Positions 2,598 to 61,819 of a stretch of DNA of 64,000 bases are shown here, in pieces. The notes beneath the pieces were generated by a model, which was given only the letters and a program-made list of their open reading frames with translations, did not search any database and was not told the origin of the DNA. The position numbers and the translations under genes are program-made. Origin of the DNA: Deltaproteobacteria bacterium (lineage in GTDB: Bacteria; Myxococcota_A; Polyangia; Fen-1088); contig JANRKS010000034.1 of NCBI GenBank assembly GCA_033763315.1, positions 340 to 64,339 of the forward strand, in the 5' to 3' direction. Position 1 is the stretch's first letter; each line of letters opens with the position of its first letter.

Positions 2598-2725
2598 TGT
2601 GACCTCGCCATTGAAAGCCGCCTTCATAATTTTTTCATGCCCAACGGGCGGAGGCACGTCATTTTCATCAGTCCGAGCTCCGTCGGCCACCCAGCAAGAG
2701 CATCGTTACACATGACGATAGTCGA

Positions 2726-3106: not shown

Positions 3107-3259
3107 GCGGTGGTCCCGCGATGCGCGGGAACGTGCCGCAGAGCCATCCAGTGGCAGGCGAATCTAAGGATTCGCGGCCCCAGAAGAACCCCACAATGTT
3201 GCTGGATGGACTGCCGACGTGACGAGGCCCCTTGCCGTTCGCTGCGCCACGGAGTTTGG

Positions 3260-3670
3260 TCACTCGCTACGTGATAGACGGACAAAGGCGTCAGCCGGCT
3301 CAAATGCGACCAATGAATCGTCCTCCGTAGACATAGATCCCTGAACCATCTTGTGTTCGATGCCTTTCAAGGCGCGAAAGATGGCTGACACTTGTTCCTC
3401 GAGATCTCGCAACCGGTTTTCCACTGCCACCATCGACTGCGGCATTGGCTTAGGTTCATCTGTGGCCGCGGGCCGCACCAAGCCTAGGGCTTTCTGCCAA
3501 CGGAACAACAAACCAACTGCGATGTCGTGGCGTCTCGCTACGAGCGACAAGGTTTCATTCTCTGCAAAGGCCTTTAGGATCAAGCTTCGCTTCTCTGCGT
3601 CTGAAAACCTTCGCCGACGTCCATCACGAAATGGTGGAACAACAACTGGGGCACCTTCAAACTTGCTCAT
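3260..3670 (-). CDS. IS3/IS66-family transposase accessory protein OrfA (HTH_Tnp_1 / Transposase_8). Solo remnant with no OrfB.
   Basis: RRRFSDAEKRSLILKAFAENETLSLVARRHDIAVGLLFRWQKAL is a classic IS3/IS66 OrfA helix-turn-helix, followed by a leucine-zipper-like tail (LRDLEEQVSAIFRALKGI). No downstream transposase catalytic ORF is present; 2932..3303 and 3066..3263 are not protein-like. Confidence 0.7.
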   Translation of the reverse strand: MSKFEGAPVVVPPFRDGRRRRFSDAEKRSLILKAFAENETLSLVARRHDIAVGLLFRWQKALGLVRPAATDEPKPMPQSMVAVENRLRDLEEQVSAIFRALKGIEHKMVQGSMSTEDDSLVAFEPADAFVRLSRSE

Positions 3671-3792
3671 GCTTTAGACACTCCCTTAGTAAAGGCTAAC
3701 TAGAGACTACCAAGGCTTTCCTTTAGGACACCGTCAACCATCGCCCCGAACGTTGTTAGACCAACCTTCATCAATGGTATGTGTTCACGCCC

Positions 3793-24440: not shown

Positions 24441-24534
24441 GCGCCCCTCCGTTGATCGGTCTGGAACCAGCCGGCGCGATGAACTTCTAACGGAGGATCA
24501 TTTTTGTGGCCTCCGAGAATGGCTCGTTTTCTTC

Positions 24535-27500: not shown

Positions 27501-27720
27501 GGCGCTTGGTCGGGCGCCATCGGCGCTAGAGAGCCGTCAACTCTTGAAACTGCTTGACGAAGAACGAAGCCGATTCGGAGCGGCTCCGGAAGACGCCGAG
27601 GCATTGTTGGGAATTGGTCAACATCCTCGCGATCCGAAGCTTTCAGCATGTGAAGTAGCCGCTTGGACATCCGTGTCCCGCGTCATTCTCAATTTGTACG
27701 ACGCCATCACGAGAGTATGA
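24535..27720 (+). CDS. PSCyt1 (cytochrome c-like CxxCH) / DUF1549 (PSCyt2) / DUF1553 (PSD1) large secreted protein.
   Basis: Signal peptide [28 protein letters not shown] (the ORF is open from 24358). [27 protein letters not shown] (heme-binding-like CxxCH). [18 protein letters not shown]...[15 protein letters not shown] (DUF1549-like). A DUF1553-like C-terminal region. Confidence 0.85.
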   Translation: [1061 protein letters not shown]

Positions 27721-29162
27721 AGTTAAGCCACGCAATGAAGGAATTCGAGATTGACCGGCGCCGCCGAACCCTCCTCACAGGCGCTGGCTACGGTTTGGGT
27801 GCCGCCGCCTTGGGGCACCTTTGGCCAGGATCTGCGCACGCCGCTTCGAGGCCACGCGGGTGGTCCGGTGTGCTCACTGAGGCCGACTTTCCGGTTAGGG
27901 CCAAGCGGGTGATTCACCTCTGTATGGCGGGGGGACCCTCCCAGTTCGAGACCCTGGATTGGAAACCGATCCTGAGGAAGCTGCACGGCCAGCCCTTCCC
28001 AGCATCGCTAACGAAGGGTCAACAACTTGCGCAACTTCAAAACACGCCGCTTATCGCCCGTGGGTCGTTCGTCGACTTCAAGAGATACGGAAAGTCGGGG
28101 CAGGAGATTTCAACACTACTCCCACACATCGGGAGCGTCGCCGATGACATCTGTATCATTCGATCAATGTACGGCGAGCAGATCAACCACGATCCCGCAC
28201 ACGCTTTCATGAACACGGGCTCGATCTTGAAAAATCGACCGAGTATGGGCTCTTGGTTGCTGTATGGACTGGGTGCCGAAAGCCAGGACTTACCAGGCTT
28301 CGTGGTTATGGTTTCCGTCGGGCGAGATGGCGATCAGCCGATTTCCTCTCGCCAATGGTCTGCAGGTTTTTTGCCCAGTCGATTCCAAGGCATCCAGTTT
28401 CAATCGAAGGGCGACGCCGTGCATTTTGCGAAGCGCCCCGATGGAGTGAGCAAGGGCGCCCAAGAGCGCATCACGCAAACGGTGCGAGAGCTTGATGCGG
28501 CGACTTTTGCCGCGCGCTTGGATCCGGAAATTGAAACACGCATCAGCCAGTACGAGATGGCGTTTCGTATGCAAACCTCGGTACCCGAATTGACCGACCT
28601 GTCATCCGAGCCGAAGAGCGTCCTCGCGGCTTATGGCATCGAACGACCAGGTGACGGTAGTTTCGCATCCAATTGTTTGATGGCCAGGCGGCTTGCAGAG
28701 CGCGGCGTGCGGTTCATTCAACTTTACCACCGTGCGTGGGACCATCACGGCGACATTGAGAAGCACCTGCCCCGCGTGGCCCAAGGTGTGGATCAGCCCT
28801 GCGCGGCCCTCATCAAGGATCTGAAACAACGCGGAATGCTGGACGACACCCTGGTGATATGGGGAGGTGAATTTGGTCGCACCCCGATGGGTCAAGGATC
28901 AGGCCGGGATCACCACATCAATGCGTTTTCGATTTGGATGGCCGGAGGCGGCGTCAAGGGTGGCATGAGCTGGGGACACACAGACGAAATGGGATACAAC
29001 CACCTTAAGGACGGGCAGGAAGTCGCTGTACGAGATCTACACGCAACCATGCTGCGCCTGTGCGGTGTCGACCACAATCGCTTGACGTTTCCGTACCAGG
29101 GTCTCGATCAAAGACTGACCGGCGTTGAAGAAGCGCGAGTTGTAAAGGAGATCATTTCGTAG
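27717..29162 (+). CDS. DUF1501-family (sulfatase/alkaline-phosphatase-like) protein with TAT signal; partner of the preceding PSCyt/DUF1553 gene.
   Basis: MKLSHAMKEFEIDRRRRTLLTGAGYGLGAAALGH is a TAT signal. The start ATG at 27717 overlaps the upstream TGA (ATGA). C-terminal HRAWDHHGDIEKH and GGEFGRTP are typical of DUF1501. Confidence 0.85.
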   Translation: MKLSHAMKEFEIDRRRRTLLTGAGYGLGAAALGHLWPGSAHAASRPRGWSGVLTEADFPVRAKRVIHLCMAGGPSQFETLDWKPILRKLHGQPFPASLTKGQQLAQLQNTPLIARGSFVDFKRYGKSGQEISTLLPHIGSVADDICIIRSMYGEQINHDPAHAFMNTGSILKNRPSMGSWLLYGLGAESQDLPGFVVMVSVGRDGDQPISSRQWSAGFLPSRFQGIQFQSKGDAVHFAKRPDGVSKGAQERITQTVRELDAATFAARLDPEIETRISQYEMAFRMQTSVPELTDLSSEPKSVLAAYGIERPGDGSFASNCLMARRLAERGVRFIQLYHRAWDHHGDIEKHLPRVAQGVDQPCAALIKDLKQRGMLDDTLVIWGGEFGRTPMGQGSGRDHHINAFSIWMAGGGVKGGMSWGHTDEMGYNHLKDGQEVAVRDLHATMLRLCGVDHNRLTFPYQGLDQRLTGVEEARVVKEIIS

Positions 29163-42192: not shown

Positions 42193-43494
42193 TCAATTGA
42201 AGGCCCAGCTCACATCCGCGTAGAATCCGTTAATCCGCAGCCGGTAATCGTCGTTTCCTGCGGCCCCACAGAATGCGCAGGGTTGCTGTCCCGGCGACGC
42301 TGGATCGATGTCCTCTGGCCTCACCTGACCCGCGCCGCGGCGGTGGGCGTAAGCGACGTTGAACTGCCAGGCGCCGACGCTATACCCGGCCCCCGCTGTG
42401 AACACGTGCGTCGGTGCGGGCGGCGTCCCAAATGCGGAAGGGTAGCGCTCGTTGGTGATCTTGCCATCAAAGATGTAGCCGCCGCGCAGGGCGAAGGGGC
42501 GCACACCCGACGGGGTTGGCAGCAGCCTATATTCAACGCCCGTGCGAAGAGTGAAGGCATCGCGCCAGTTGAACACGTTGGGCACGGCGGCCCGCATTGG
42601 CGTGGCGCCCGGATCCGCGGGTGGAACCCCCGTGAGTGGATACGCACCGTTTTGGTGGCCGAAGATGTATTCGCCATCAACGGCGAAGCCCCACGCCTGC
42701 CAATCGGCGCGCGCGCCAGCACCAAGTTTCGATGGCAGTACGAACGACGTTTCGATGTCGGAATAGGTCCTCTGCAAAGCGATGCCTTGATCGTTTGTCA
42801 CCGTTGTTTTTGTGCGGTGGCGGTACGTGGTGCCGAGTTGCAGCCACGGCAACGGCGCCCATTGCAGTCCCACGCGCGCACCGAGAAAGTTGGTTCCCGT
42901 CATTTTGAAATCAAGCCCCGGCGGGATCGTTGAGCCCGGCACGCCCTGAAAACGTTCGAGGCTGACGTACGTCACCCGGTAGCCCAAGCCTAAGCGCACT
43001 TGCGGTGTCAGGTTAACGGCGATCCCGGGTGAAGCTTCAAGAAACACCAAGTGGGTCTTGTTCTCGGCGGTGTTGCTGCCAACGGGGTACTTATACGTGG
43101 CGCCTGCTGAGGCCACCGGATAAAGGCCAAAGCCCAACGTCACGAGCCGGCTCACGCGATACCCAGCGCCCAGCAAAAACAGGGGCGCCACGGTCAGCTC
43201 AGAGTCGCGATCTTTAGACAGGACGTCGGGGCTGGCGTGCGTCTTCGCCAGCAACAACGAGAAGTCTGCGATCAACGACAGACGTTGCACGTTGCCCAAC
43301 CCTGCGGGGTTGTGAAACAGGGCGGAGCCATCGTTTACGTAAGAGATGGCCGTGCCGCCCATGCCTATGTGGCGAGCGGAATACAACATCGGCGTGTCGT
43401 ATCCACCGGCGCGCACCGCAGCGGACGCAAAGGTGAGCGCGCCGGCGAATGCCAACGCACACGACAGCCGCTCACATTTGCGCGTTGCCATCAC
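42193..43494 (-). CDS. Outer-membrane beta-barrel protein, FadL/OmpP1/TodX-like (tentative).
   Basis: Signal peptide. GGYDTPMLYSARHIGMGGTAISYVNDGSALFHNPAGL resembles the FadL-family N-terminus. Alternating amphipathic strands run throughout, ending YADVSWAFN. Confidence 0.55.
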   Translation of the reverse strand: MMATRKCERLSCALAFAGALTFASAAVRAGGYDTPMLYSARHIGMGGTAISYVNDGSALFHNPAGLGNVQRLSLIADFSLLLAKTHASPDVLSKDRDSELTVAPLFLLGAGYRVSRLVTLGFGLYPVASAGATYKYPVGSNTAENKTHLVFLEASPGIAVNLTPQVRLGLGYRVTYVSLERFQGVPGSTIPPGLDFKMTGTNFLGARVGLQWAPLPWLQLGTTYRHRTKTTVTNDQGIALQRTYSDIETSFVLPSKLGAGARADWQAWGFAVDGEYIFGHQNGAYPLTGVPPADPGATPMRAAVPNVFNWRDAFTLRTGVEYRLLPTPSGVRPFALRGGYIFDGKITNERYPSAFGTPPAPTHVFTAGAGYSVGAWQFNVAYAHRRGAGQVRPEDIDPASPGQQPCAFCGAAGNDDYRLRINGFYADVSWAFN

Positions 43495-43496
43495 GA

Positions 43497-44051
43497 TCAG
43501 TTACCTGCGCTCGCGTCAGCCCCTGCGTCGGCTCCTGTGCTTGGGGCCGGTAGGCCGCTGCACATATAGAAGATGCTGAGGCATCCGTTCTGCTGTTGGC
43601 AACTGATGCACGCGGTGCTTGATGAATCAGCGGAACAGGGCACCTGGCACTTATCAATGGTGCAGTTGAAAGCCTTTTTGTAGCAATCCAAGCACACGTC
43701 GCTAACGCTTGGGTTGATCGTTTGTTTGACGCAAGCACTGGTGCAATCGTCGCCGCCACCGTTGAGAAAACACGACCGGCCACACGTGCGGGCCGCACCA
43801 CCAACGTCGTTAGCGCATACGACGTTCAAATCCGCCGCCGACGCGCACTTTCCCGCAAGCGAGGTGCCGGCTTCCAAGGTTGTTCGGTTGTAGGCCGCGA
43901 AGGTAGCCACGCACATCGCCGGCCCCACCGGACCATCAATGGCCGCATCGCCCACCGGCGTGACAGGCCCATCATCTTCATCATCGCATCCGGCTGTCGC
44001 GAGAACACCGGCCGCAGAGATCGCGCAGAGACACAGAATAAGGCGTTTCAT
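43497..44051 (-). CDS. Cys-rich lipoprotein (unknown function), immediately upstream of the outer-membrane protein gene.
   Basis: MKRLILCLCAISAAGVLATAGCDDEDDG lipobox, 20 Cys in 184 aa, Ala/Gly-rich C-terminal tail. Its stop abuts the downstream gene's start. Confidence 0.5.
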   Translation of the reverse strand: MKRLILCLCAISAAGVLATAGCDDEDDGPVTPVGDAAIDGPVGPAMCVATFAAYNRTTLEAGTSLAGKCASAADLNVVCANDVGGAARTCGRSCFLNGGGDDCTSACVKQTINPSVSDVCLDCYKKAFNCTIDKCQVPCSADSSSTACISCQQQNGCLSIFYMCSGLPAPSTGADAGADASAGN

Positions 44052-44177: not shown

Positions 44178-45686
44178 TTGTTCCGCGAACGAAGCCAAAG
44201 TAACGGTGGCGAGAGCCTGATGTTGCAGAATCTGCACTTTCGCGCGAGCATGCACGGCATGCCGCCATCTGGCCGGGTTGGGTTCGAGTTCAGCTTTTCC
44301 ACGGGAAAACCCGCGCCCACGCGGCCCGTGGGTCAACGCCTGCGGCTGTTGTTCCTCGCCAACTTCGCGGGCCAATCGTTGCCACCATTCACCGTGAAGA
44401 AAGTCAATGGCGATGATTTGGATGGCCTCGTCGCGGCGTTCTCACCGCAGGTGCACGTGGCCTTCAACAACGAATCTCCCGCCACGCTATCCTTCGCGTC
44501 GCTCGACGACTTCGCTCCAGACGAACTGTTGCGACGCGTGCCTGTGCTTATGGATTTGCAGCGCACGCGGGCTGAATTGTTGAACCCTGCCACGTTCGCT
44601 GCCACAGCGGCGCGTTTGGGCCTTGCGCAAACAACAGCGGCGCAGCCCACGCCCCCAGCACCCACCTCACTTTTTGCAGGTTTGTTGGGTGGTGAAGTCG
44701 CAAAGCCTTCCATTCCCCCTGCGCCTTCACCATCCGGCCTTGATGCCGTGCTCGCTCGCGCTGTTGCACCACACATCGTGCCCGCAGCGGATCCGCAGCA
44801 GAAATCACTCGTGTCGGTGGTTGACCAAAACCTCGCGGATGCTTTGCGATCTGTTCTTCATACGCCTGCGTTTGCGTCTGTGGAGGCCGCGTGGCGGGGG
44901 CTGCAACGCGTGGTTGAGGCGTTCTCTGGCGATCCGAGCGTGGAGCTGTGGGTTGCGTCCGCGCCGCCGGAAGTTCTGCTGGCTGACGCCGTAAAGCTGC
45001 AAACGAATCTGGACGCATCTTTGCTTGGCACGCTGTTGTGCGGTGAAGACGCGGCATGGTCGATGGTGATTGTCGACCACATGTTCGGACGTAGCGTGGA
45101 TGATCTCATCGCGCTTGGTGCCTTGGGCGCTTTGGCAGGTCGTGCGGGCATTTGTGCGGTGGCCAGTGGCGATGCGGCTTTGGCCGGCGGCGCAGCGTCT
45201 GATGTTCAGGAGCTTTGGCAAACGCTGCGGCAAAGTCCGCTTGCGCCGCACCTCGCTCTGGTTCATCCGCGGCTGCTGTTGCGATTGCCCTATGGTCCGC
45301 GGCGAAACGAGGTTCAGTCCTTCCCCTTCGACGAGCTTGGCACCCAAACCGAGCCCCCACCCCAACGCCTCCTGTGGGGCTCGGGCGCATGGGCGGTGGC
45401 AGGCGTCTTGGCGCGTTCCTTCACCGAGGATCCGGACGATTTGCCACTGGGGGCCAGTGCCGAGGTGGATGGCATTCCCACGCTGGTGTTTGTTGACAAG
45501 CACGGTGACAAGCAACTTTATCCCAGCTGTGAGTCGTGGCTTAGCGAGACGCAGGCGCAGACTCTGTTGGGTTCCGGCCTGATCCCGTTGGTTGGTAACC
45601 GTAGCTTGGCGCAAGCGTCGCTCTTCCGGCTGCAATCCATTGCCCAGCCGCCCCAGCCCTTGTGGCTCCGTAAGGTGAGCGCGTAG
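44178..45686 (+). CDS. T6SS sheath-like protein: TssB (VipA) and TssC (VipB) fused in one ORF, with the TssC C-terminal region absent.
   Basis: Aligned by eye to V. cholerae VipA/VipB as recalled from memory. The TssB part has RLRLLFLANFAG (VipA PLKTLVVGDFKG) and LSFASLDDFAPDELLRRVPVLMDLQRTRAEL (VipA LNFKSLADFAPDAVASQVPELKKLIELREAL). A Pro-rich linker follows. The TssC part has KSLVSVVDQNL...FASVEAAWRGLQRVVE (VipB KSLVDQMLVEL...FQAMESAWRGLKLFVD), LIALGALGALAGRAG (LQYMGALGAMAHAP), LALVHPRLLLRLPYGPRRNEVQSFPFDE (LTAPRFLLRVPYDPIENPVKSFNYAE), LLWGSGAWAVAGVLARSF (YLWGNTAFAFATRLTDSF), and IPTLVFVDKHGDK...LIPLVGNRSLAQASLF (LPVHVFESMGAL...FIALTMRKGSDNAAFF). The ORF stops where VipB has about 120 more residues, and the next gene starts 16 nt later. 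The start may be 44250 (MHGMPPSGRV) rather than 44178. Confidence 0.7.
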   Translation: MFRERSQSNGGESLMLQNLHFRASMHGMPPSGRVGFEFSFSTGKPAPTRPVGQRLRLLFLANFAGQSLPPFTVKKVNGDDLDGLVAAFSPQVHVAFNNESPATLSFASLDDFAPDELLRRVPVLMDLQRTRAELLNPATFAATAARLGLAQTTAAQPTPPAPTSLFAGLLGGEVAKPSIPPAPSPSGLDAVLARAVAPHIVPAADPQQKSLVSVVDQNLADALRSVLHTPAFASVEAAWRGLQRVVEAFSGDPSVELWVASAPPEVLLADAVKLQTNLDASLLGTLLCGEDAAWSMVIVDHMFGRSVDDLIALGALGALAGRAGICAVASGDAALAGGAASDVQELWQTLRQSPLAPHLALVHPRLLLRLPYGPRRNEVQSFPFDELGTQTEPPPQRLLWGSGAWAVAGVLARSFTEDPDDLPLGASAEVDGIPTLVFVDKHGDKQLYPSCESWLSETQAQTLLGSGLIPLVGNRSLAQASLFRLQSIAQPPQPLWLRKVSA

Positions 45687-45701
45687 CAAATACCGTTTGC
45701 T

Positions 45702-47723
45702 TTGAACCGGAAGGCCCTTCGGGTAACCTGCCAGGCAGTGCCTGGTTGCCCCGCCTGTGACGTTGAGCTTTCCGATCCCAGCCTGCGGTTTTGCAGTGCG
45801 TGCGGGCACGATCTCAAACCGAAGGCCATTGAAGACGAGTTTGACGGTCTGATCGGCAAGATCGTCGACGCGCGCTACAAGGTCCTTGGCCGCATCGGCT
45901 CCGGGGGGATGGGCGTCGTTTACCGCGTCGAGCATGTTCGCATGGGTAAGGTGGCCGCGATGAAAGTGTTGCGCCGCGATTTGGTTGACGACGCCCAAGC
46001 CGCGCGCCGCTTCGTGCGGGAGGTGGAGGTGGTGAGCAAACTTGACCACCCCAACATCGTTCAAACGTTCGATTTCGGCGAATGGCGTGGGCTGCTTTAC
46101 CTCGTGATGGAATTGGTGCGCGGCGAAGATCTCGCAGCGCTTGTGCGGCGTGATGGCCCGTTGTCGTTAAGCCGCGCCTTGCCGCTGTTTTCGCAAGTGT
46201 GTCGCGCGCTTGATGAAGCGCACCACGCGGGCGTGATTCACCGCGATCTCAAGCCCGACAACATTGTCGTCTTTAGCCGCCGCGAAGGCGAGCACGTGAA
46301 AGTGTTGGACTTCGGGTTGGCCAAACTGCGCGAACGTCCCGGCATGGCTGAAGTGACGGGGGCGGGCAGTCTGGTGGGCACACCCTATTACATGGCGCCC
46401 GAACAAGTGCGCAGCGAGCCCGTGGACGAACGCACCGACATCTACGCTCTGGGGGCCACGATTTATCGCGTGGTCACGGGCACGCCCGCGTTCTCGGGTG
46501 ATTCGCCTATGGCGATCTTAACCCGCCATATCACCGATCCTGTTGAACCACCCAGCGTGCGACGTCCCGGGCTGCCATTGGCGTTGGATCACCTGGTGCT
46601 CAAGGCCATGGCGAAAGATCCCGCCAACCGTTTTGCCACGGCAACCGAGATGCGCGAAGCCATCGACGCGCTTTTGACGGCCCGTATTGCCGCCAATGAA
46701 CACAGCCAACCTTTGCCCTCGTGGGTTGAGAATCCTGTCACCGCCAGCGCGGAGATGCCCCGCAGCACCACCGCTGTCACTGCGGTGGCCATGCCCAAGC
46801 CTGATGACAGCGATCCGCTCACGCGCCTGCGTCGCGAGGATCTTGATGATTTCGAACGCAGCCTGAAGCGCCGCCGTCTGTTTCTGCAGCTGGGCGTGCC
46901 GCTCGCGGTGATAGTGTGTGCATGGGCCGGGTGGCGTTGGATCATTGCCCCACCCGAGCAAGCCGGGCCTACGGAAGAAGAGCCCAACGATTCGGCACGC
47001 ACAGCAAACTTGGCAGCAAATTCCACGCCCATCTTCGGCCAGCTTGGCTCCGAGAAGGCGGATGGAACGCCCGACTTTGATTACTACCGCATCCCTGCAG
47101 GGAACACGCCGCGCACGCTGTTCGCGTCAGTCAGTGGCGTCAACGAGATCAACTTGGTGCTAGAGCTGTTCGATTCAGCCGGCGCGTTGGTCGGAAAATC
47201 AGATGGCGGGGGCGAAGGAGCCGGAGAAACCTTAGGGCCTTTGCACATCGGCGCGAATGAAGCGTTTTTGCGCGTGAGGCCGCTGTGGCACGAGGGACAA
47301 GATTCGAACACCGTGACTTCGCAAACGCCTTACGCGATCCGAACCTCATGGGGAAAGCCTTCCGCGGATGCTGAACTTGAACCCAACGATGTGAGGACAC
47401 AAGCCTCGCCCTTGTTATTGGATACCGCCACAACGGGGCACCTGTCGTCGGTGCAAGACGTTGATTGGTTCGTGGTCAACGGTGATCCAGGCGGCCGCAT
47501 CACGCTCACCTTAGAACCAAGCGCCGAGCTGCCCGTCCTGGTTGAATCACCGAACACGAAACAAAAACTTGTGGCCAGCGCCGACGCCGCATCCATGCCT
47601 TTGGTCTTCCCCAACGATGGTCGGATCTTTGTGTCAGCCAGGCAGTCGGCACACAAAAAAGACGCCGACGTTGATCGCACGGCGCCCTACGCCCTCATCG
47701 TTCGCAAAGCGTCGCGCGAATAA
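45702..47723 (+). CDS. Membrane Ser/Thr protein kinase: N-terminal zinc ribbon, Hanks-type kinase, one TM, and two extracytoplasmic PPC (pre-peptidase C-terminal)-like domains.
   Basis: CPACDVELSDPSLRFCSACGHDL (Zn ribbon). GSGGMGVVYRVEH...AAMKVL (glycine loop/VAIK), HRDLKPDNIV, DFGLAK, YMAPE. TM LFLQLGVPLAVIVCAWAGWRWII. C-terminal DFDYYRIP... and EPNDV...GHLSSVQDVDWFVV are PPC-like. Confidence 0.85.
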   Translation: MNRKALRVTCQAVPGCPACDVELSDPSLRFCSACGHDLKPKAIEDEFDGLIGKIVDARYKVLGRIGSGGMGVVYRVEHVRMGKVAAMKVLRRDLVDDAQAARRFVREVEVVSKLDHPNIVQTFDFGEWRGLLYLVMELVRGEDLAALVRRDGPLSLSRALPLFSQVCRALDEAHHAGVIHRDLKPDNIVVFSRREGEHVKVLDFGLAKLRERPGMAEVTGAGSLVGTPYYMAPEQVRSEPVDERTDIYALGATIYRVVTGTPAFSGDSPMAILTRHITDPVEPPSVRRPGLPLALDHLVLKAMAKDPANRFATATEMREAIDALLTARIAANEHSQPLPSWVENPVTASAEMPRSTTAVTAVAMPKPDDSDPLTRLRREDLDDFERSLKRRRLFLQLGVPLAVIVCAWAGWRWIIAPPEQAGPTEEEPNDSARTANLAANSTPIFGQLGSEKADGTPDFDYYRIPAGNTPRTLFASVSGVNEINLVLELFDSAGALVGKSDGGGEGAGETLGPLHIGANEAFLRVRPLWHEGQDSNTVTSQTPYAIRTSWGKPSADAELEPNDVRTQASPLLLDTATTGHLSSVQDVDWFVVNGDPGGRITLTLEPSAELPVLVESPNTKQKLVASADAASMPLVFPNDGRIFVSARQSAHKKDADVDRTAPYALIVRKASRE

Positions 47724-47728
47724 AAAAC

Positions 47729-47777
47729 AAAAGGCGCGTCGGCGTCGCTTCTTTCGAGCGGGCCAAACGCGCCTTTT
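47729..47777. terminator. Bidirectional terminator candidate between the convergent kinase and hpf genes.
   Basis: An 11-nt perfect inverted repeat aaaaggcgcgt...acgcgcctttt (GC core GGCGCG/CGCGCC). An A-run lies on one side and a T-run on the other, so it can act on either strand. The loop is long (~28 nt). Confidence 0.4.
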
Positions 47778-47796: not shown

Positions 47797-48123
47797 TTAC
47801 GCGGCAACCGCCTCCTCGTGCAGTTTGCGGCGGCTCGCGCGCTTGCGGTTCTTGTCGCGCCGTCGCTGTTCAACCAGCTTGTTAACCGCCATGTGCATGG
47901 CGTGTGAAAACGTCTCTGCTGACGCCGTCACGGTATAGAAGCGATCATGCGCGTGAAGATTGCAATGCACCACCGGTGCCTGCACATGTCCATCTGCATC
48001 CAACGCCCATTCCACATACTCGATGCGTTTGAAGTACTTCGGGAGACGCTCTGAAAGCTCTTGCGCCAACCTTCGGTGACCAGCCCTCACATCATCGCAT
48101 CGGGACACGATCGTCACGACCAT
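47797..48123 (-). CDS. hpf: Ribosome hibernation promoting factor / RaiA (YfiA-HPF family, short form).
   Basis: 108 aa. MVVTIVSR.DDV...LPKYFKRIEYVEWAL...YTVTASAETFSHAMHMAVNKLVEQRRRDKNRKR aligns with E. coli HPF (MQLNITGNNVEIT...LEQYFDRINQVYVVL...YAAIDGLIDKLARQLTKHKDKLK). Confidence 0.65.
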   Translation of the reverse strand: MVVTIVSRCDDVRAGHRRLAQELSERLPKYFKRIEYVEWALDADGHVQAPVVHCNLHAHDRFYTVTASAETFSHAMHMAVNKLVEQRRRDKNRKRASRRKLHEEAVAA

Positions 48124-55687: not shown

Positions 55688-57349
55688 ATGGCACCCGCGA
55701 CGTTGTCTGTTGTTCGCCCTCTTTACACCTTCATAGCGGTTTGGTCCTTAACCGGAGGGTGTTCGGGCGCGGTTCGTTCTACTGATAGCGGCGATGACGG
55801 TGCGGGCGGTGGGGCAGGCACGTCGGAACAAACGGGGGGCGCTGGTTCTAACGGTAGCGCCGCGGGCCCCGCGCGTGCGGCGCCAACCATGCTCCGACGA
55901 CTCACGAACACTGAGTATCGCAACACATTGGTGGCTCTGTTGTCCTTGCCGCAGTCCCCAAAGGATTCACTTAGCGCCGATCCGTTGAGCAAGGCCGGCT
56001 TTGATAACTTCTCGTCACAGCTAACGGTGTCCACAACAACGGCAGCGCAATACGCGGCCTTAAGCGAGTCGCTGGTTTCGGCATGGAAGGCCCCCGCCTG
56101 CGCCGGCGCCGAAACAGATTGCGCAAAAACGTTCGTTGCAAGCTTTGGCAAGAAGGCTTTTCGTCGTCCCCTGAGTGACACGGAGCTGCAGCGTTACGTG
56201 GCTCTTTACACCGACGAGCGCACAAGAGGAACCCACGCAGGGGCGCTTGGGCAGGTGGTGGAAACGATGTTGCAATCCCCGAAGTTCCTCTACAGATCGG
56301 AGCTTGGGAATCCTGCCGATGGCGCCAATCGCAAGCTCACGCCATACGAAGTTGCCACGGCGCTTTCTTACCTATTTACGGGTTCAATGCCCGACGACGA
56401 GCTGTTTGCGGCCGCCGACGCGGATGCGCTGCGCACGCCTGCGCAGATAGAAAAGCAAGCGCGGCGCCTGCTTGGCTTGCCATCCGCAAAGAGCACGCTT
56501 CGCGGCTTCATTGAGGCTTATGCCGGCATCACACGATTGTCGGAAATCACCAAGAACGCCGAAACATACCCGCAGTTCACGGCTGCCCTTCACAGCGCGA
56601 TGAAGGAGGAGACGAGCCGCTTTATTGATTCGGTGCTTTGGGAAGGTGACGGAACCTTCAAGTCTTTGTTGACCAACACAACCACCTTCGTCAATGCAGA
56701 CTTGGCAAAGTTTTATGGTCTGCCTGGCGCCGCTGATCCCACCACCTTCGTGAAAGCGACGCCACTACACCGCGCTGGCCTTTTGACCCGCCCAGCGGTG
56801 CTTGCGGCCCATTCAAAGGCCAACGAATCGTTCCCCATCTTGCGTGGCAAGTTCGTGCGAGTGGCTTTGCTCTGCCAAAATCTTCCCGCGCCGCCCAAGG
56901 TTGTGCCCAAAGCGCCCGAGCCCGCCGCCAACGCCACCACGCGTGAGCGCTTTGCTCAACACGCAAGTGACCCCGCCTGCTCTGGGTGCCATCGTTTGAT
57001 CGACCCGCTTGGTTTTGGATTCGAGAACTACGATGGCATTGGCCAATACCGCGAAACAGAAAGTGGCAAACCGATCGATGCCGCGGGCGTCATCACAGAC
57101 ACGATCGACCTGGATGGGCCTTTCATGGGCGCGGTGGAGCTGTCGCAAAAGTTGGCGTCAAGCGCGGAAGCCCAGCAGTGCTTTGCTCTGCAGGCCTTTC
57201 GATGGATGTTCGGTCGGTACGACGCTGACGATGAAGCCAAGATCGCTGAAGCGGCGCAAACCGCATTGTCCCGTGAGGGCTTAAATATCAAAGACCTGTT
57301 TGTGTCTTTAGCGAAGACCGATGCCTTTGCTTCCAGGACGTTCGAGTAA
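55688..57349 (+). CDS. DUF1587/DUF1592/DUF1588/DUF1585-family lipoprotein; same-length (553 aa) paralog of 21400..23061.
   Basis: Lipobox VWSLTGGCSG. LTNTEYRNTLVALL, FGKKAFRRPL, GLLTRPAVLA, CSGCHRLIDPLGFGFENYDGIGQYR. Confidence 0.8.
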   Translation: MAPATLSVVRPLYTFIAVWSLTGGCSGAVRSTDSGDDGAGGGAGTSEQTGGAGSNGSAAGPARAAPTMLRRLTNTEYRNTLVALLSLPQSPKDSLSADPLSKAGFDNFSSQLTVSTTTAAQYAALSESLVSAWKAPACAGAETDCAKTFVASFGKKAFRRPLSDTELQRYVALYTDERTRGTHAGALGQVVETMLQSPKFLYRSELGNPADGANRKLTPYEVATALSYLFTGSMPDDELFAAADADALRTPAQIEKQARRLLGLPSAKSTLRGFIEAYAGITRLSEITKNAETYPQFTAALHSAMKEETSRFIDSVLWEGDGTFKSLLTNTTTFVNADLAKFYGLPGAADPTTFVKATPLHRAGLLTRPAVLAAHSKANESFPILRGKFVRVALLCQNLPAPPKVVPKAPEPAANATTRERFAQHASDPACSGCHRLIDPLGFGFENYDGIGQYRETESGKPIDAAGVITDTIDLDGPFMGAVELSQKLASSAEAQQCFALQAFRWMFGRYDADDEAKIAEAAQTALSREGLNIKDLFVSLAKTDAFASRTFE

Positions 57350-57368
57350 GCCGCGAAGGAGACCAATC

Positions 57369-58724
57369 ATGTCACATGCATTAATTCGACGTCGCAGTCT
57401 GATGAAGCGCCTCGGTGCTGCCGGCTTCCTTGCAGCGCCTGTGTTTCGCGAAGCGTTTGCCGAGGCCGCCGCAACGCCACCCTTGAGGCTCATTCTTCTG
57501 AACTTGCCAGGTGGGATCCCGTTCAAGGGAGGATCAGAGGAGCAGCTCGACACGTTTTTCGATACGATGCTGAAGCCCTTTGCGGCGTTGCAGTCCGACG
57601 CTTTCGTTTTCGACAACATTCAAAATGGCGCTGGAGATTTGGTCTCAACCTATTTTGAGCTCGAAGGTCACGGTGGAGGCTGCCGATCGATCTTTGGCGC
57701 GGCCGTCATGGATCAAGGGTGCAAGGGCACCGCGAGCTGTGGTGCGGAGGAGAATGCGTATCGGTATGGCACGGCGACCACGATCGACCAGCACTTGGCG
57801 AAAGCCATTGGCTCCCGCACACAGTTTCCTGCACTGCACTTTGGAACTTTGTGGGACAAGGGCCAAGGCGGTGATCACGCCGAATGCTTCTTCAACAATG
57901 GCCAACCGGTGCGCCCGATGGCCGATCCGATGGCCGCCTTCACCCGTTTGTTTGGCAACAAGGCGCCAAGCGCCAACACAGGTTCCACGGGCCCTGATGC
58001 TCTCACAGTGAATAAGCGTGCGCGCGGCAAAAGCCGCCTGGATGCGCTCTATGCTGAAATCGCCGAGGTGAAAGCGATCGCCGGTCGAACGGAGCGGGCG
58101 AAGCTCGATCAGCATCTTACGGCGCTGCGTGAGTTGGAAACACAGCTTCCCGCGGCTCAAGATGGTGCCCCCGTGCCGCAAAAGGGGACCTCGTGCAGCA
58201 CTCCTTCGGTCACAGCCGCGGCTGACATTCGCATTGTGAGTGCCGCATTCAACGGGCTCGCTTACCAAGCGCTGAACTGCGACCTTACGCGTATCGTGGC
58301 TTTGCAATGGTTGTCATCTGGCGACCATCTGCCGCGGTTTGAATGGTTGGGTTGCAAAACCGATCACCATACGATGGAGCACAGTTCAAACGGCGCCGAA
58401 TACATCAAAGCGCAAACGTGGATCCTTGAGCAGATGGCGGCGTTTGTGGGCATGCTGAAGGCCACGCCCGAGGGCAACGGCAACATGCTCGACAATTCTA
58501 TCGTCTATCTGGCGTCGGAGATGGGCAACGGCACGCACCTACTCAGCCCTGCGCTTTCCGTAATGTTTGGCAAGGCAGGGGGCGCCTTTCGCCCCGGGCG
58601 CCGCATCGATATGGGCGGGCGCCACATCAATGATGTGTTGCTCACGATCACGAAAACGATGGGCCTCAACGCATCCTCGATCGGTGATGCCAAATTCAAT
58701 AAGGGCGTGGTGTCGTTGGCCTGA
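57369..58724 (+). CDS. DUF1552-family TAT-secreted protein; paralog of 23058..24440.
   Basis: MSHALIRRRSLMKRLGAAGFLAAPVF is a TAT signal. The ATG at 57369 is 19 nt past the upstream stop; the ORF is open from 57321. Confidence 0.8.
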   Translation: MSHALIRRRSLMKRLGAAGFLAAPVFREAFAEAAATPPLRLILLNLPGGIPFKGGSEEQLDTFFDTMLKPFAALQSDAFVFDNIQNGAGDLVSTYFELEGHGGGCRSIFGAAVMDQGCKGTASCGAEENAYRYGTATTIDQHLAKAIGSRTQFPALHFGTLWDKGQGGDHAECFFNNGQPVRPMADPMAAFTRLFGNKAPSANTGSTGPDALTVNKRARGKSRLDALYAEIAEVKAIAGRTERAKLDQHLTALRELETQLPAAQDGAPVPQKGTSCSTPSVTAAADIRIVSAAFNGLAYQALNCDLTRIVALQWLSSGDHLPRFEWLGCKTDHHTMEHSSNGAEYIKAQTWILEQMAAFVGMLKATPEGNGNMLDNSIVYLASEMGNGTHLLSPALSVMFGKAGGAFRPGRRIDMGGRHINDVLLTITKTMGLNASSIGDAKFNKGVVSLA

Positions 58725-58792: not shown

Positions 58793-61726
58793 TTATCGCA
58801 ATTTGCACATGCCCGACTTGCCGGGGCATTTGTAAATGTCTTGGCAATCAGCATCGGAATCGCAGCGTGTCTTACATGCGTTATTCACACACTTGAGGCC
58901 GTTCGCACACGCCACCGTGACTGATCCACAAGTGCCTGAACCAGTGCAGCTCGGCCTGATCTCGCTGTTTCCATCCGCGCTGCAGCTGGTGTTGCCGCAG
59001 AGCGTGCCCGATGCGGCTTGCTTACAAGCCCCGCCGCCATTGCATTTGCCGATAAAGCCGCAGGCGGTGTTGTCGGCCGTGCAACTGTCAACGTCCTCAC
59101 TGCCGTCAGGCACGTTCGCGCACGTTCCCGCGGCGTTCTTGCAGCTTTGGCATGTGCCGCACGAAGGTTTGTCGCAGCACGTGCCGTCAACGCACGTCAA
59201 GCCGGCCATGCATTCCGTTGTTGCGGCACAACCAGAACCTTTTGGCTTGAGGCCACATGAGAACGTTGAACCCACCGCCACGCAGTTCGAGCCCGCTTTG
59301 CAATCAGTGGCTTGCGTGGCAGGCGTGCATGTGGATTTACAAGTGGCGCTCGTGGAGTCACAAAGAAAGTCGCCACACGATTGAGATGATCCCATAAGGC
59401 AGGTGCCCAGGCCGTTGCAGAACCCAGCGTTGCTGAGCGTGGCGCCGCCCGAGGGACACATCGCTACGGTGCACATGGTGCTGGCGCTCCATTGGCTGCA
59501 ACCGCCTTTGCCATCGCATTGGCCATTCGTGCCGCACAAGGTGGCGGCTGTGGAGGCGCAATCACCTGCCAAATCGGCGCTGCCGGCGGGGACGCTCGAA
59601 CAGGTGCCCGCAGATCCTGAAAGGTTGCAAGCCACGCAAGTGCCTTTGCACTCCGTGTCGCAGCACACGCCATCAACACAGAACGTGCTCGCGCAATCGG
59701 CAGCTGCGGTGCAAGAGGCTCCGATGCCTTTGGTTCCACAACGGCCTTCGGTGCACGCGTTGCCCGCTACGCATTCCGTACTGTTTTGGCAAGAGTCGAT
59801 GCACGCGGTTCCAGCCGCGTTGCAGGTGTACGGATCGCACGAGCGTTTTGTGCCCGCGATGCAAATGCCTGTGCCTGAGCAGTAGGACGTCACTTGGTTT
59901 TGTCCGGCTGTGCAGTTCGCCTGTTTGCAGATTGTTGTCTCCGCGTAAAGCCGGCAACTACCGGAGCCGTTGCACGTTCCGTCGGTGCCACAGCTGGTTC
60001 CGCCCATATCTTTGCATGTGCCCATAGGATCGATCGAACCATTCGGCACAGCGGAACACATGCCCTCTTTGCCAGGCAGCGCGCAAGAGAAACAGCCTTT
60101 GTCACAGGCGGTGCCGCAACACACGCCTTGGGCGCACGCGCCGCTTTGGCATTCGCTGGCGGTGCTGCACACTTGGCCGTTGCCCTTTTTGCCGCACGAT
60201 CCCCCGCGGCACACGTTCGGCGCCACGCAGTCGGCGTCGCTGGCGCACAGATCGGCGCAGCGATTGCCATTGCAGGTAAACGGTGCGCAAGCCAACGGAG
60301 GCGAACTCATGCACGCGCCGTTGCCGTTGCAGGTGCTGGGTGGCGATGCGGTGTTGGTGGTGGAGCTGCATGAGCCTGCTTTGCAAACCGTCCCCGAAGC
60401 GTAGAGCTCACAACCTCCCGAGCCATTACACATGCCGTTTCTGCCACAAGCGGCCACGCCACCATCGATGCAAGCTTTCGCAGGATCACGTTGCCCAGCG
60501 GCGTAACGAGGATCAGGCGTGCGGGCCGGCACCGCCACACAACGACCAGGCGAGGCGGGCAAAGCGCAGTTACGGCAGAGGCCATCGCACGAGCTCTCGC
60601 AACAAACCCCGTCGGTGCAGAAGCCAGAGCCGCACTGATCGGACGCGCTGCAGGCCTGGCCCAACCCGCGCTTTCCGCAGCTGCCGTTGTTGCAGGTGGC
60701 AGGGGCAACGCAATCTTGGTTTCCTGTGCACATTGTTTTGCAAGCGCCAGCCGCGCAGACAAACGGGGCACAGGTGATGGCAGCGCCCAATTGGCAGCTG
60801 CCCTGGGCGTTGCAGGTGGCGGCGGGCATGAAGCTGCCGCCCGCACAAGAGCCCGGCGTGCACACGGTGCCCGGCGCATACCGAGCGCAGCCGCCTTGGC
60901 CATTGCATTTTCCGGAGAAGCCGCAGGTAGAGACATCTGACTTGGCGCACAGCCCATGCGGATCGTCGGCGCCCGCTTTGGCTGGCACGCACTGGCCTGG
61001 CTGCGTGGGATCTTTGCAAGTCACGCAAGGGCCATCGCAAACCGTGTTGCAACAAACGCCATCAACGCACGTCCCGGAATCACATTCGCTGTTGTTCGCG
61101 CACGTGAGACCCACGGGCTTCTTGCCGCATGAGCCGTCCTTGCAGGCGCGCCCGCTCGTGCATTCAGCGTCCGTCTTGCATTCAGCGAGACACGTCGATG
61201 TGGTTTTGTCGCAAATGAACGGCGCGCAGCTTTGATTGGCGCCCGCTGTACACACACCGCTTTGGCACTGCTTGGGCGCCACCAATTGCGCACCGTTGCA
61301 CACCCCAGCCTCGCACGGCGTGTTGTCGGGATATTTGCGGCAACCGCCGCGGCCATCGCACGTGCCATCAAGGCCACAGGAAGCGACGTTGCTGCGAGGG
61401 CAGGCATTTTCTTTGGCCGGCGGCGCTGCTTCAGGCACGGGCGTGCAAACGCCGACGTGGCCCGTGACATCGCAGGATTCACAGGGGCCTGTGCACGCGC
61501 TTGTGCAGCAGATGCCGGATGCGCAAACGCCGTCGGCGCAATCACCATCAGTGGTGCAGGCTCCGCCGCGTTGGACCGTACCGCCGCCTCCCACGGGAGG
61601 TGCGGCGTCTGGCGTCCCGTTGTTCGTATTTTTGACGGTGCATCCTGAGAGGACCCACACCACGCCAAATACTGCGGCCGCTCGTCGAGCGAGGCACGAG
61701 ACATAAGATCTATCGCCAGCGGTCAT
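58793..61726 (-). CDS. Large secreted/lipoprotein built from about 5 tandem ~190-aa Cys-rich repeat units.
   Basis: Lipobox VVWVLSGCT (start likely 61726; the ORF is open to 61777). The repeat skeleton C..DGDC.SG.C.DGVCC...C.GPC..C...G..G.C..VP...DP.G.C......CG..G.C.G.GGC..Y..GT.C....C.G.........C...G.C.....C.PF.C....C...C..D.DC recurs about 5 times, with more than 150 Cys in total. Confidence 0.7.
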   Translation of the reverse strand: MTAGDRSYVSCLARRAAAVFGVVWVLSGCTVKNTNNGTPDAAPPVGGGGTVQRGGACTTDGDCADGVCASGICCTSACTGPCESCDVTGHVGVCTPVPEAAPPAKENACPRSNVASCGLDGTCDGRGGCRKYPDNTPCEAGVCNGAQLVAPKQCQSGVCTAGANQSCAPFICDKTTSTCLAECKTDAECTSGRACKDGSCGKKPVGLTCANNSECDSGTCVDGVCCNTVCDGPCVTCKDPTQPGQCVPAKAGADDPHGLCAKSDVSTCGFSGKCNGQGGCARYAPGTVCTPGSCAGGSFMPAATCNAQGSCQLGAAITCAPFVCAAGACKTMCTGNQDCVAPATCNNGSCGKRGLGQACSASDQCGSGFCTDGVCCESSCDGLCRNCALPASPGRCVAVPARTPDPRYAAGQRDPAKACIDGGVAACGRNGMCNGSGGCELYASGTVCKAGSCSSTTNTASPPSTCNGNGACMSSPPLACAPFTCNGNRCADLCASDADCVAPNVCRGGSCGKKGNGQVCSTASECQSGACAQGVCCGTACDKGCFSCALPGKEGMCSAVPNGSIDPMGTCKDMGGTSCGTDGTCNGSGSCRLYAETTICKQANCTAGQNQVTSYCSGTGICIAGTKRSCDPYTCNAAGTACIDSCQNSTECVAGNACTEGRCGTKGIGASCTAAADCASTFCVDGVCCDTECKGTCVACNLSGSAGTCSSVPAGSADLAGDCASTAATLCGTNGQCDGKGGCSQWSASTMCTVAMCPSGGATLSNAGFCNGLGTCLMGSSQSCGDFLCDSTSATCKSTCTPATQATDCKAGSNCVAVGSTFSCGLKPKGSGCAATTECMAGLTCVDGTCCDKPSCGTCQSCKNAAGTCANVPDGSEDVDSCTADNTACGFIGKCNGGGACKQAASGTLCGNTSCSADGNSEIRPSCTGSGTCGSVTVACANGLKCVNNACKTRCDSDADCQDIYKCPGKSGMCKLR

Positions 61727-61819
61727 AAGGCCTCCAAGTTTGCAAAGTCCCGCCGGCCGGTGCCGGTATCGAGCCAAGTAGCAAAGTGTAAGCTATGTCG
61801 ACGGGGACGGCTACGTCGT

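Follow-up and report, generated by a model that had tools for sequence, protein, structure and literature searches.

The gene at the centre of this analysis most probably codes for a stand-alone bitopic Hanks Ser/Thr kinase of the receptor type, a reading to which we give a probability of about 0.6 and in which the T6SS sheath-like protein encoded immediately upstream would be at most one candidate substrate. A coupling between the two proteins is possible, and the kinase most likely has a promoter of its own and ends its own transcription unit. The coordinates of the features are given in Table 1 and refer to the whole stretch of DNA that was analysed (64 kb), called here the window.

As stated in a preliminary description of this DNA, there is a kinase-coding open reading frame on the forward strand at 45702-47723, but its start has to be moved, the TTG at 45702 being merely the first codon of the longest ORF. 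We have placed the start at the GTG at 45738 because in the orthologous loci L009, L010 and L015 in-frame stops are found just 5' of the equivalent, conserved GTG. This codon is also the start of the kinase in the NCBI and other gene calls, and the resulting product is identical to the NCBI protein P0050. Therefore, the gap that separates the kinase from the sheath-like gene has 51 nt, or 15 nt if counted to the TTG, and the spacing of 16 nt given before has to be corrected. The neighbourhood of the kinase gene, which includes genes for SecA, an ECF sigma factor, an ABC-F protein and shikimate dehydrogenase, is conserved across genomes. A link of the kinase to the nearby ECF sigma/anti-sigma pair was considered and rejected, given that the anti-sigma is a conventional zf-HC2 protein and that the pair is absent beside the ortholog found at locus L016. 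A search of the window against Rfam gave no matches.

Table 1. Location of the features described in the text; all coordinates are positions in the window.
Feature	Coordinates	Strand	Remarks
TssB-TssC fusion without the TssC C-terminal domain	44220..45686	+	488 aa; Pfam VipB and T6SS_VipA; candidate partner
Conserved promoter-like motif	45697..45737	+	TTGCTTTGAAC, 16 nt, TAACCT, 8 nt, GTG; in the 51-nt gap
Receptor-type Ser/Thr kinase gene	45738..47723	+	661 aa; GTG start; stop TAA at 47721-47723
Four-Cys zinc ribbon (CPAC ... CSAC), cytoplasmic, N-terminal	45747..45803	+	C4, C7, C19 and C22 conserved
Hanks-type kinase catalytic domain	45876..46646	+	Pfam PF00069; intact G-loop, Lys76, HRD, DFG, APE
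Disordered low-complexity juxtamembrane linker	46701..46829	+	AF2 pLDDT <50 for residues 322-327 and 331-364
Predicted single TM helix LFLQLGVPLAVIVCAWAGWRWII	46878..46946	+	Residues 381-403; KRRR directly before
Ectodomain repeat 1, PPC/collagen-binding-domain-like beta domain	46971..47357	+	Invariant ExEPND and DxD; weak PPC match
Ectodomain repeat 2, PPC/collagen-binding-domain-like beta domain	47358..47720	+	ELEPND and DVDWF; profile match to ColG/ColH
Terminator hairpin separating the kinase from the convergent orf108	47729..47777	+	-29.1 kcal/mol, z = -4.98, followed by UUUU

The order of zinc ribbon, Hanks kinase and one TM helix described before was upheld. The four cysteines of the ribbon are conserved in at least 90% of 62 aligned homologs. 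In the window protein the Pfam zinc-ribbon matches are sub-threshold (DUF7575, 4e-5; DZR, 9e-4; Zn_ribbon_3, 1e-3), and several of the kinase homologs carry precomputed PF13240/PF13248 annotations. The catalytic domain was recovered by hmmscan, as had been proposed, with 176.5 bits for Pkinase (PF00069), well above the gathering cut-off of 31.7 (E 8.8e-52). All the catalytic motifs, i.e., GSGGMG (residues 54-59), K76, E95, HRD (168-170), N175, DFG (191-193) and APE (220-222), are invariant in the alignment of the 62 homologs (A3). The AF2 model (mean pLDDT 86.8) has the bilobal kinase fold and matches PknB of Mycobacterium tuberculosis in a Foldseek comparison (E 4.7e-27, 39% identity, TM 0.92, rmsd 2.1 A). 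The kinase is PknB-like, has all its motifs intact and is predicted to be active. Residues 381-403 are the sole strong hydrophobic window of the protein and are contained in a long AF2 helix (366-403); the positive-inside rule points to an N-in/C-out topology.

The claim that the extracytoplasmic part consists of two PPC domains stands at the level of profiles and not at that of the protein itself. In the hmmscan that had been suggested for PF04151 the window protein gave only a match of 14.4 bits, below the cut-off of 25.9 (E 0.072), and this was confined to repeat 1. The same family was matched in 8 of 20 kinase homologs, with a best E of 1.1e-7. When the ectodomain profile (A4) was compared with the PDB, the tandem collagen-binding domains s3a-s3b of ColG (5iku) were found with an E of 2.7e-12, a value that refers to the whole sequence, and s3 of ColH (3jqw) with 1.4e-4. 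The matching part of the profile, positions 122-229, comprises repeat 2 preceded by the final strand of repeat 1 and aligns to both of the ColG domains. The two repeats are mutually homologous by hhalign (98.9%, E 1.5e-17); a BLASTP comparison between them was non-significant (E 27), so that this homology requires profile-profile comparison. Repeat 1 is all-beta in the AF2 model, with pLDDT >90, and the motifs ExEPND and DxD are invariant in both repeats. Together these data support an ectodomain formed by two tandem PPC/collagenase-CBD-like domains, an assignment that holds for profiles. The acidic motif ExEPND...DxD corresponds to what we take to be the Ca2+-chelating residues of the clostridial collagen-binding domains. 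In ColG, collagen binding by these domains requires Ca2+ (PMC6168687). Collagen itself is an unlikely ligand for the ectodomain of the kinase.

The verified architecture fits the earlier proposal that an outside signal leads to phosphorylation inside the cell. The two ectodomains, each with its acidic motif, would be located in the periplasm and would bind some protein or polysaccharide ligand. Ligand-dependent dimerisation would then result in autophosphorylation of the activation loop, and the activated kinase would phosphorylate cytoplasmic targets, as PknB-type kinases do. The best 120 database matches to the kinase have ca. 590-810 aa and 43-73% identity over 42-98% coverage, and in the alignment of 62 homologs conservation extends over the Cys, kinase and ExEPND/DxD columns. 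By sequence comparison the protein is a member of an orthologous group, both large and conserved, that is present in Polyangia/Myxococcota-like bacteria, a lineage in which very large kinomes are known.

The gene upstream codes, judging by its sequence, for a genuine fusion of TssB and TssC that lacks the TssC handshake domain. Pfam detects VipB (1.7e-28, 100 bits against a cut-off of 27) and T6SS_VipA (2e-5, 24.9 bits against a cut-off of 24); VipB_2 (PF18945) was not detected by the Pfam scan. The profile of the fusion family matches, among PDB entries, residues 6-365 of the 493 of TssC (2.5e-75) and TssB (2e-17). The alignment stops near TssC residue 365, i.e., the ca. 125 C-terminal residues are missing. 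This end of TssC contributes strands beta11-beta13 to the handshake domain, by which the subunits of the sheath are joined and which is needed for their polymerisation (PMC5807055). The fusion also falls under the NCBIfam equivalog cut-offs, with 85 bits for TssC against 271.5. Its AF2 model (pLDDT 85.7) has TssC1/VipB as best Foldseek matches, and the N-terminal strand motif of TssB, the LVLxDFxG motif and the TssC motifs AWRG and RLPYG are kept.

Fusions of this kind form a large family. When clustered at 50% identity, the proteins found by an exhaustive search fall into over 150 clusters, of which the best 150 representatives were all near full length; relatives were found at one locus each in the genome-contig and metagenome-contig scans, and a plasmid tblastn with the fusion as query found nothing. 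Some distant members sit in T6SS clusters or next to them, in the company of tssA-B-C-hcp-tssE-F-G at L014 and of vgrG/DUF4123/PAAR-like genes at L011 and L013. An all-against-all BLASTP of six distant fusion loci detected no conserved partner genes other than those of the T6SS. In the window and in the close-clade loci, in contrast, the fusion is an orphan. A scan of the ORFs in the 64 kb detected no T6SS core gene (TssA/E/F/G/J/K/L/M, Hcp, VgrG, ClpV), nor were such genes found in the flanks (+/-8-10 kb) of the clade loci L001 and L015. In the literature searched, neither TssB-TssC fusions nor a kinase with a Zn ribbon, one TM helix and a pair of PPC domains were described, and a review of T6SS accessory factors published in 2026 does not include the fused, truncated family.

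The preliminary description proposed looking at the co-occurrence of the two genes in other genomes, and the outcome was divided. Kinase and fusion are neighbours in all seven loci of one Polyangia-like clade (the window, L001, L007, L009, L010, L015 and a single contig of 5,965 bp, P0005/P0051), with kinases that are 62-83% identical. In six of them the genes are directly adjacent on the same strand, with no terminator in between. In the seventh, L009, they are close together, with a minus-strand SLFN_AlbA_2/HATPase_c_4 gene located between them. However, this adjacency is weakly informative, since the entire block of ca. 25 kb is syntenic in the clade: the genes from ABC-F to SecA/XseA are kept in L001 and L015, and junctions unrelated to the pair, such as sigma-SecA and kinase-orf108, are equally conserved. 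Outside the clade, one kinase ortholog (L016) was inspected for its gene context. It is a full-length positional ortholog (46% identity) beside an ABC-F ortholog (66%), and no TssBC-like gene was found within 10 kb of it. Conversely, TssBC-like relatives in other lineages are not paired with orthologs of this kinase. A cross-match of the contigs shared by the two lists of matches returned only three pairs, already known; we give it little weight because the word-indexed search behind it recovered few fusions (ca. 50 proteins, compared with the more than 150 clusters of the exhaustive search) and missed that of L015. The adjacency is most likely an inherited, clade-specific gene order that defines neither of the two families.

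The promoter-like motif before the kinase start is conserved in every one of seven aligned loci, among them L016 and also L009, where the motif and the GTG are retained in spite of the inserted reverse-strand gene. This conservation suggests that the kinase may have its own promoter here, from which a leaderless mRNA could be made; a generic sigma-70 promoter scan found no sites between 43.4 and 48.4 kb. A strong hairpin terminator follows the kinase gene only, and no terminator-like site was found in the gap after the fusion gene. The co-transcription of the pair that had been put forward is plausible as read-through, the genes being on the same strand and separated by 51 terminator-free nt. 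We consider the kinase independent of its neighbour because of the ortholog in L016 that has no fusion, the gene inserted in L009, the motif that is kept, the terminator and the synteny of the block.

A dedicated signalling module formed by the two genes had been proposed before. In such a module the kinase would sense a periplasmic cue, phosphorylate the sheath-like protein or its complex and in this way control assembly. The model cases for it are the control of T6SS firing by PpkA/Fha and the phosphorylation of the sheath that has reportedly been seen in Francisella. The conserved disordered linker and the N-terminus of the fusion could carry phospho-sites. What speaks for a module in the clade is the adjacency itself, with its common strand and short gap; the absence of the fusion from L016 and the insertion in L009 stand against it, as does the retention of the kinase's upstream motif where there is no fusion. 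Beyond the clade, three of the six distant fusion loci (L014, L012 and L011) have a Ser/Thr kinase or FHA gene within ca. 3 kb, a hint of a recurrent link between the fusion family and Ser/Thr signalling. However, these kinases are non-orthologous to that of the window, with which they share just the catalytic domain, and genes of the PpkA/Fha type would in any case be expected at these loci, which are T6SS clusters. In addition, Pfam matches to FHA and PP2C were absent from the window ORFs scanned. The sequences thus weakly suggest a module, and we regard this explanation as doubtful. Still less probable, in our opinion, is a more specific version, in which the orphan fusion of the Polyangia-like clade would have moved away from its T6SS locus to serve a receptor kinase with a PPC ectodomain as its dedicated target in the cytoplasm. 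The fusion retains the donor strand of TssB and, from TssC, the N-terminal helix but lacks the handshake acceptor domain, and so would not build a canonical sheath. If this version were true, a phospho-regulated sheath-like assembly, a sheath cap or a regulator would be under the control of an extracellular cue.

Alternatively, the kinase could regulate, in the manner of PpkA/TagE, a canonical T6SS whose genes are located elsewhere in the genome, with the fusion as an accessory factor of that system, for example a sheath cap or a modulator of assembly. The distant fusions located inside T6SS clusters or beside them (L014; L011 and L013) and the PpkA-like topology of kinase, TM helix and periplasmic domain are consistent with this. 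Nevertheless, we find it improbable: T6SS core genes are absent from the window and from the L001 and L015 flanks, Fha and PppA were not found nearby, the ectodomain is PPC-like instead of vWA, and a kinase of the same orthologous group does without the fusion in L016. Finally, an anti-phage defence kinase, either a single-gene system like PD-T4-6 or a part of a defence island, is very improbable in spite of the strong matches to the PADLOC models of PD-T4-6 (to 1.7e-95) and of the Schlafen/AlbA_2-type gene inserted beside the kinase in L009, since nearly all the PADLOC matches listed fall within residues ca. 40-370 (kinase domain and linker), the two models that extend to ca. 397-423 and all others listed leave the ectodomain untouched, the housekeeping neighbourhood is stable across genomes, and other defence genes were not found in the window.

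The closest solved match of the kinase's catalytic domain is found in the PknB/PknA type, represented by PknB of M. tuberculosis and Stk1 of Staphylococcus aureus, and its best NCBIfam match is PknB_PASTA_kin, with 329 bits and under the equivalog cut-off of 450. Like these kinases, it has a cytoplasmic catalytic domain, a juxtamembrane linker, a single TM and repeated domains that would act as extracytoplasmic sensors. However, it has no PASTA repeats but two PPC/CBD-like domains and an extra N-terminal zinc ribbon, and its host is a diderm, myxobacterium-like organism. The combination of a Zn ribbon with a kinase, a TM helix and two PPC-like domains is thereby documented as an architecture which is conserved, abundant and as yet unstudied. 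The neighbour is the more interesting of the two proteins. The TssB-TssC fusions with a truncated C-terminus, of which it is one, make up a large family found in T6SS clusters and as orphans. If the coupling between kinase and fusion were true, it would represent a new regulation, or a re-use, of contractile-sheath proteins by phosphorylation.

A threonine phosphorylation pathway that acts on the T6SS, that of PpkA/TagE, has been described for the H1-T6SS of Pseudomonas aeruginosa and for Agrobacterium and Serratia (review PMC13584744). The kinase of the window is similar to PpkA in being a membrane-spanning Hanks kinase with a predicted periplasmic sensor, encoded beside a gene of T6SS ancestry. 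In contrast, it is located outside any T6SS cluster, Fha/TagH, PppA and TagQRST are not nearby, its ectodomain is PPC-like and not vWA, and its family is also found without a T6SS-related neighbour (L016). The collagenase domains ColG s3a-s3b and ColH s3 (5iku, 3jqw, 1nqd; PPC family PF04151) are likewise arranged in tandem and conserve ExEPND and D-x-D, but the domains described here are joined through a TM helix to a kinase and not to a secreted protease. Finally, the AF2 model of the fusion superposes on TssC1/VipB of the T6SS sheath TssB/TssC (VipA/VipB, TssB1C1). In contrast to the sheath pair, the fusion is a single polypeptide without PF18945 that is here encoded away from the T6SS core genes.

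The kinase reading frame that the preliminary description placed at 45702-47723 (+) is present and translates as 673 codons, but its TTG start at 45702 is merely that of the longest ORF. Because an in-frame stop lies directly 5' of a conserved GTG in three orthologous loci (L009, L010 and L015), and all independent gene calls begin at this GTG, among them that of P0050 (661 aa), an NCBI protein of identical sequence, we have reset the start to 45738. The gap after the stop codon of the TssB-TssC fusion gene is therefore 51 nt, and not 16 nt as had been described. There is no Shine-Dalgarno sequence before the GTG. A motif, TTGCTT(T/G)G, a spacer, G-TA(A/G)(C/T)CT, 7-8 nt and GTG, is kept there in seven loci, L009 and the more distant L016 among them. 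It resembles a promoter from which transcription would start at or just 5' of the GTG, and the kinase mRNA made from it may be leaderless; a generic sigma-70 scan gave no call at this motif.

Features of the kinase, its neighbourhood and the compared loci (residues in 661-aa numbering)
Feature	Position	Details
Kinase gene	window 45738-47723 (+)	661 aa
Motif before kinase start	window 45697-45737 (+)	TTGCTTTGAAC, 16 nt, TAACCT, 8 nt, GTG
Fusion gene	window 44220-45686 (+)	stop codon 45684-45686
Zinc ribbon	residues 4-22	CPAC...CSAC; four cysteines >=90% conserved (alignment, 62 full-length homologs)
Kinase domain	residues 47-303	G-loop, Lys76, Glu95, HRD, Asn175, DFG, APE invariant in family
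Linker	residues 322-364	predicted disordered
Transmembrane helix	residues 381-403	sole strongly hydrophobic segment, KRRR just before
Ectodomain	residues 405-661	two all-beta domains, pLDDT >90 (AlphaFold2 model)
orf108	window 47797-48123 (-)	108 aa, convergent with kinase; strong AAGGAGGA ribosome-binding site
Cys-rich lipoprotein and outer-membrane barrel, paired	window 42193-44051 (-)	lipoprotein 184 aa, signal peptide, lipobox-like TAGC, no Pfam match; barrel FadL/TodX- or PorV-like
DUF1587/1592/1595/1588/1585 protein, then DUF1552 (HXXSHH)	window 21400-24440 (+), 55688-58724 (+)	two paralogous pairs
PSCyt1/DUF1549/DUF1553 and DUF1501 pair	window 24358-29162 (+)	
Laminin_G_3 protein	window 6222-13253 (-)	2,343 aa, four (concanavalin-like) repeats
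994-aa ORF product	window 58793-61777 (-)	no Pfam match at 1e-4
Schlafen/AlbA_2 and HATPase_c_4 gene	L009 (= L006) 2604-3965 (-)	453 aa, exactly between fusion and kinase
Ser/Thr kinase near distant fusion	L012 about 11700-12330 (+)	2.2 kb 3' of fusion; split over three reading frames (long-read contig)
Two genes following the fusion	L002 9653-13398; L004 9640-12965	~400-420 aa and 680-840 aa, no Pfam match

The order proposed earlier for the protein, a ribbon, a kinase, one transmembrane helix and two ectodomains, agrees with the motifs, the hydrophobicity and an AlphaFold2 model made from a 62-sequence alignment (mean pLDDT 86.8), and the same architecture was found in all 62 aligned homologs. 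Pfam zinc-ribbon models gave sub-threshold matches on the window protein. PF00069 matched over the full length of the domain (E 8.8e-52, 176.5 bits against a cut-off of 31.7), and the best superposition of the kinase model was with PknB and PknA of M. tuberculosis (Foldseek E 4.7e-27, 39% identity, TM 0.92). All the testable features of a Hanks kinase were found in this protein, and an active enzyme is to be expected from the invariant catalytic residues. The KRRR next to the single hydrophobic segment would give a bitopic topology, N-in/C-out.

That the ectodomains are of the PPC type was borne out at the level of the family profile, whereas the window protein alone fell short of PF04151 (E 0.072, 14.4 bits against 25.9). 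Eight of 20 homologs matched this model individually (best 1.1e-7), and a profile of the 20 ectodomains matched the tandem collagen-binding domains (CBDs) of ColG (5iku, E 2.7e-12), ColH s3 (3jqw, 1.4e-4) and further clostridial CBDs. Homology between the two repeats is evident from hhalign (98.9%, E 1.5e-17, 116 columns) but escaped plain BLASTP. Each repeat opens with an invariant E-x-E-P-N-D, followed some 30 residues further on by an invariant D-x-D, and these motifs align with EMEPND and DADTF of ColG, positions that we take to be the Ca2+ ligands of the ColG s3b structure. ColG CBDs require Ca2+ for collagen binding (PMC6168687), and by analogy the kinase ectodomains may bind Ca2+ as well.

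The product of the upstream gene is identical to NCBI P0001, annotated as sheath large subunit, and its description as TssBC-like was confirmed by Pfam (VipB 1.7e-28, VipA 2e-5). The family profile matched TssC (2.5e-75) and TssB (2e-17) in the PDB, and TssC1/VipB lead the Foldseek matches of its AlphaFold2 model (pLDDT 85.7). This is thus a genuine TssB-TssC fusion. Its alignment to TssC ends at about residue 365 of 493, and a Pfam scan did not find PF18945. The missing part of TssC provides the handshake-domain strands beta11-beta13, connecting sheath subunits (PMC5807055); polymerisation of the fusion into a canonical sheath is unlikely. From TssB it keeps the N-terminal strand motif and from TssC the N-terminal "SLLxxLL" helix, and therefore could dock onto sheath-like partners. 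It is also the fastest-evolving protein of the block, with 41-74% identity across the clade of Polyangia-like genomes that have both genes; the kinase has 62-83%, the sigma factor 71-75% and orf108 86-87%. The latter is the best-conserved gene of the neighbourhood (measured in L001, L006 and L015), with a sub-threshold match to Ribosomal_S30AE/HPF (E 7.6e-4, 20.6 bits against 23.7).

The preliminary description had proposed that kinase and fusion may form a signalling module. The two are on one strand with a short gap, where no terminator-like site was found, and a strong hairpin followed by UUUU lies directly 3' of the kinase stop (-29.1 kcal/mol, z -4.98). Within the clade the pair is co-conserved: in six loci the fusion is followed by a kinase ortholog (the window, L001/L005 from a Polyangia MAG, L007, L010, L015 from a Myxococcales MAG, and the 5,965-bp contig of P0005/P0051), and in L009/L006 both are near but not adjacent. 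There, the intervening Schlafen/AlbA_2 gene, an insertion of apparently mobile or defence type, is on the opposite strand, so the kinase must be transcribed independently of the fusion. Other small insertions flank the fusion gene in L015 (a histidine kinase) and L010 (GH43). In the clade genomes synteny covers the whole block, beginning at the ABC exporters and reaching past SecA, and junctions between functionally unrelated genes are equally conserved. This synteny, the L009 insertion and the motif before the kinase weaken the clade adjacency as functional evidence.

Upstream in the window are ABC exporters, DUF362, an ABC-F ATPase, a GH29 fucosidase, a FadL/PorV-like outer-membrane protein and the Cys-rich lipoprotein, and downstream a small HPF-like protein, an ECF sigma/anti-sigma pair, SecA, SDR, pseudouridine synthase, shikimate dehydrogenase and XseA. 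The lipoprotein-barrel pair, divergent from the fusion gene, is kept in L001, L007 and L015, and the lipoprotein gene was found in L006/L009 and L008 as well. The DUF1587-type, DUF1552 and DUF1501 pairs are "planctomycete-type", here in a myxobacterium-like genome.

In the loci compared beyond the clade, kinase and fusion occur apart. The kinase family is large: the best 120 clusters of kinase relatives (~590-810 aa) have 43-73% identity over 42-98% of the query. In the 43-52% tier we examined one locus, L016, whose full-length kinase (46% identity) adjoins an ortholog of the window ABC-F gene (66%) and is therefore a positional ortholog; no fusion gene was found within 10 kb of it. This one locus points to an insertion of the fucosidase-OMP-lipoprotein-fusion segment between ABC-F and kinase in the close-clade ancestor. 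When 1.84 billion representatives were searched exhaustively with an HMM, the fusion family proved to comprise at least 150 clusters at 50% identity; the 150 best-scoring representatives all match over nearly their full length at E <= 1e-147, and one comes from the cultured Methylobacter sp. YRD-M1 (WP_268116961.1). We compared six distant fusion loci (27-35% identity; L002, L004, L011, L012, L013 and L014). In L014 the fusion directly adjoins tssA-tssB-tssC-hcp-tagJ-tssE-tssF-tssG, in L011 and L013 it lies by vgrG/DUF4123/PAAR-like genes, L011 also having an Fha-type gene, and in L012 a Tox-PAAR-like gene is near; L002 and L004 have no T6SS genes within 8 kb. The gene pairs following the fusion in these last two are alike in size, but BLASTP found no similarity between them. 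This is a large, uncharacterised family, with some members directly beside complete T6SS clusters or vgrG/PAAR genes and others orphan.

Ser/Thr signalling genes do recur near distant fusions, as the module would have it, with kinases within about 3 kb in L014 and L012 (the frame splits of the latter are probably assembly indel errors, and its deposited 481-aa gene call is mostly out of frame). However, PpkA/Fha pathways are frequent in T6SS clusters (PMC13584744), so that Ser/Thr signalling genes are to be expected there, and these kinases are unrelated to that of the window, which has no ortholog in the six loci; neither was any other common partner gene found in them. We consider a dedicated module unlikely. 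That the kinase serves, like PpkA, a T6SS encoded elsewhere is more doubtful still: a scan of the ORFs over all 64 kb found no T6SS core genes, FHA protein or PP2C phosphatase, and the kinase lacks the context and domains that define PpkA/TagE. An anti-phage defence kinase is very improbable; PADLOC models matched nothing more than the generic kinase domain and the linker that adjoins it.

The evidence is best explained by a receptor-type kinase that stands alone and acts like PknB; the gene next to it is an orphan from a fusion family of T6SS ancestry. The repeated ectodomains, a putative Ca2+-dependent sensor, would bind a ligand, the ligand-bound kinase would dimerise as PknB does and autophosphorylate its activation loop, and once activated it would phosphorylate cytoplasmic substrates. 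In the literature searched we found no description of TssB-TssC fusions or of the ribbon-kinase-TM-PPC architecture, which is not proof of novelty, and a review from 2026 on accessory factors of the T6SS says nothing of the fusion family. The kinase belongs to an already known kind, the Hanks receptor kinases, and differs from PknB in the added cytoplasmic zinc ribbon and in having a PPC/CBD-like tandem as its presumed sensor. The fusion family, although outside the kinase coordinates studied here, is the more unusual of the two. Its member next to the kinase has the TssB and TssC N-terminal domains in common with functional sheath subunits, but lacks their C-terminal domain and genomic context and scores far under the NCBIfam equivalog cut-offs.
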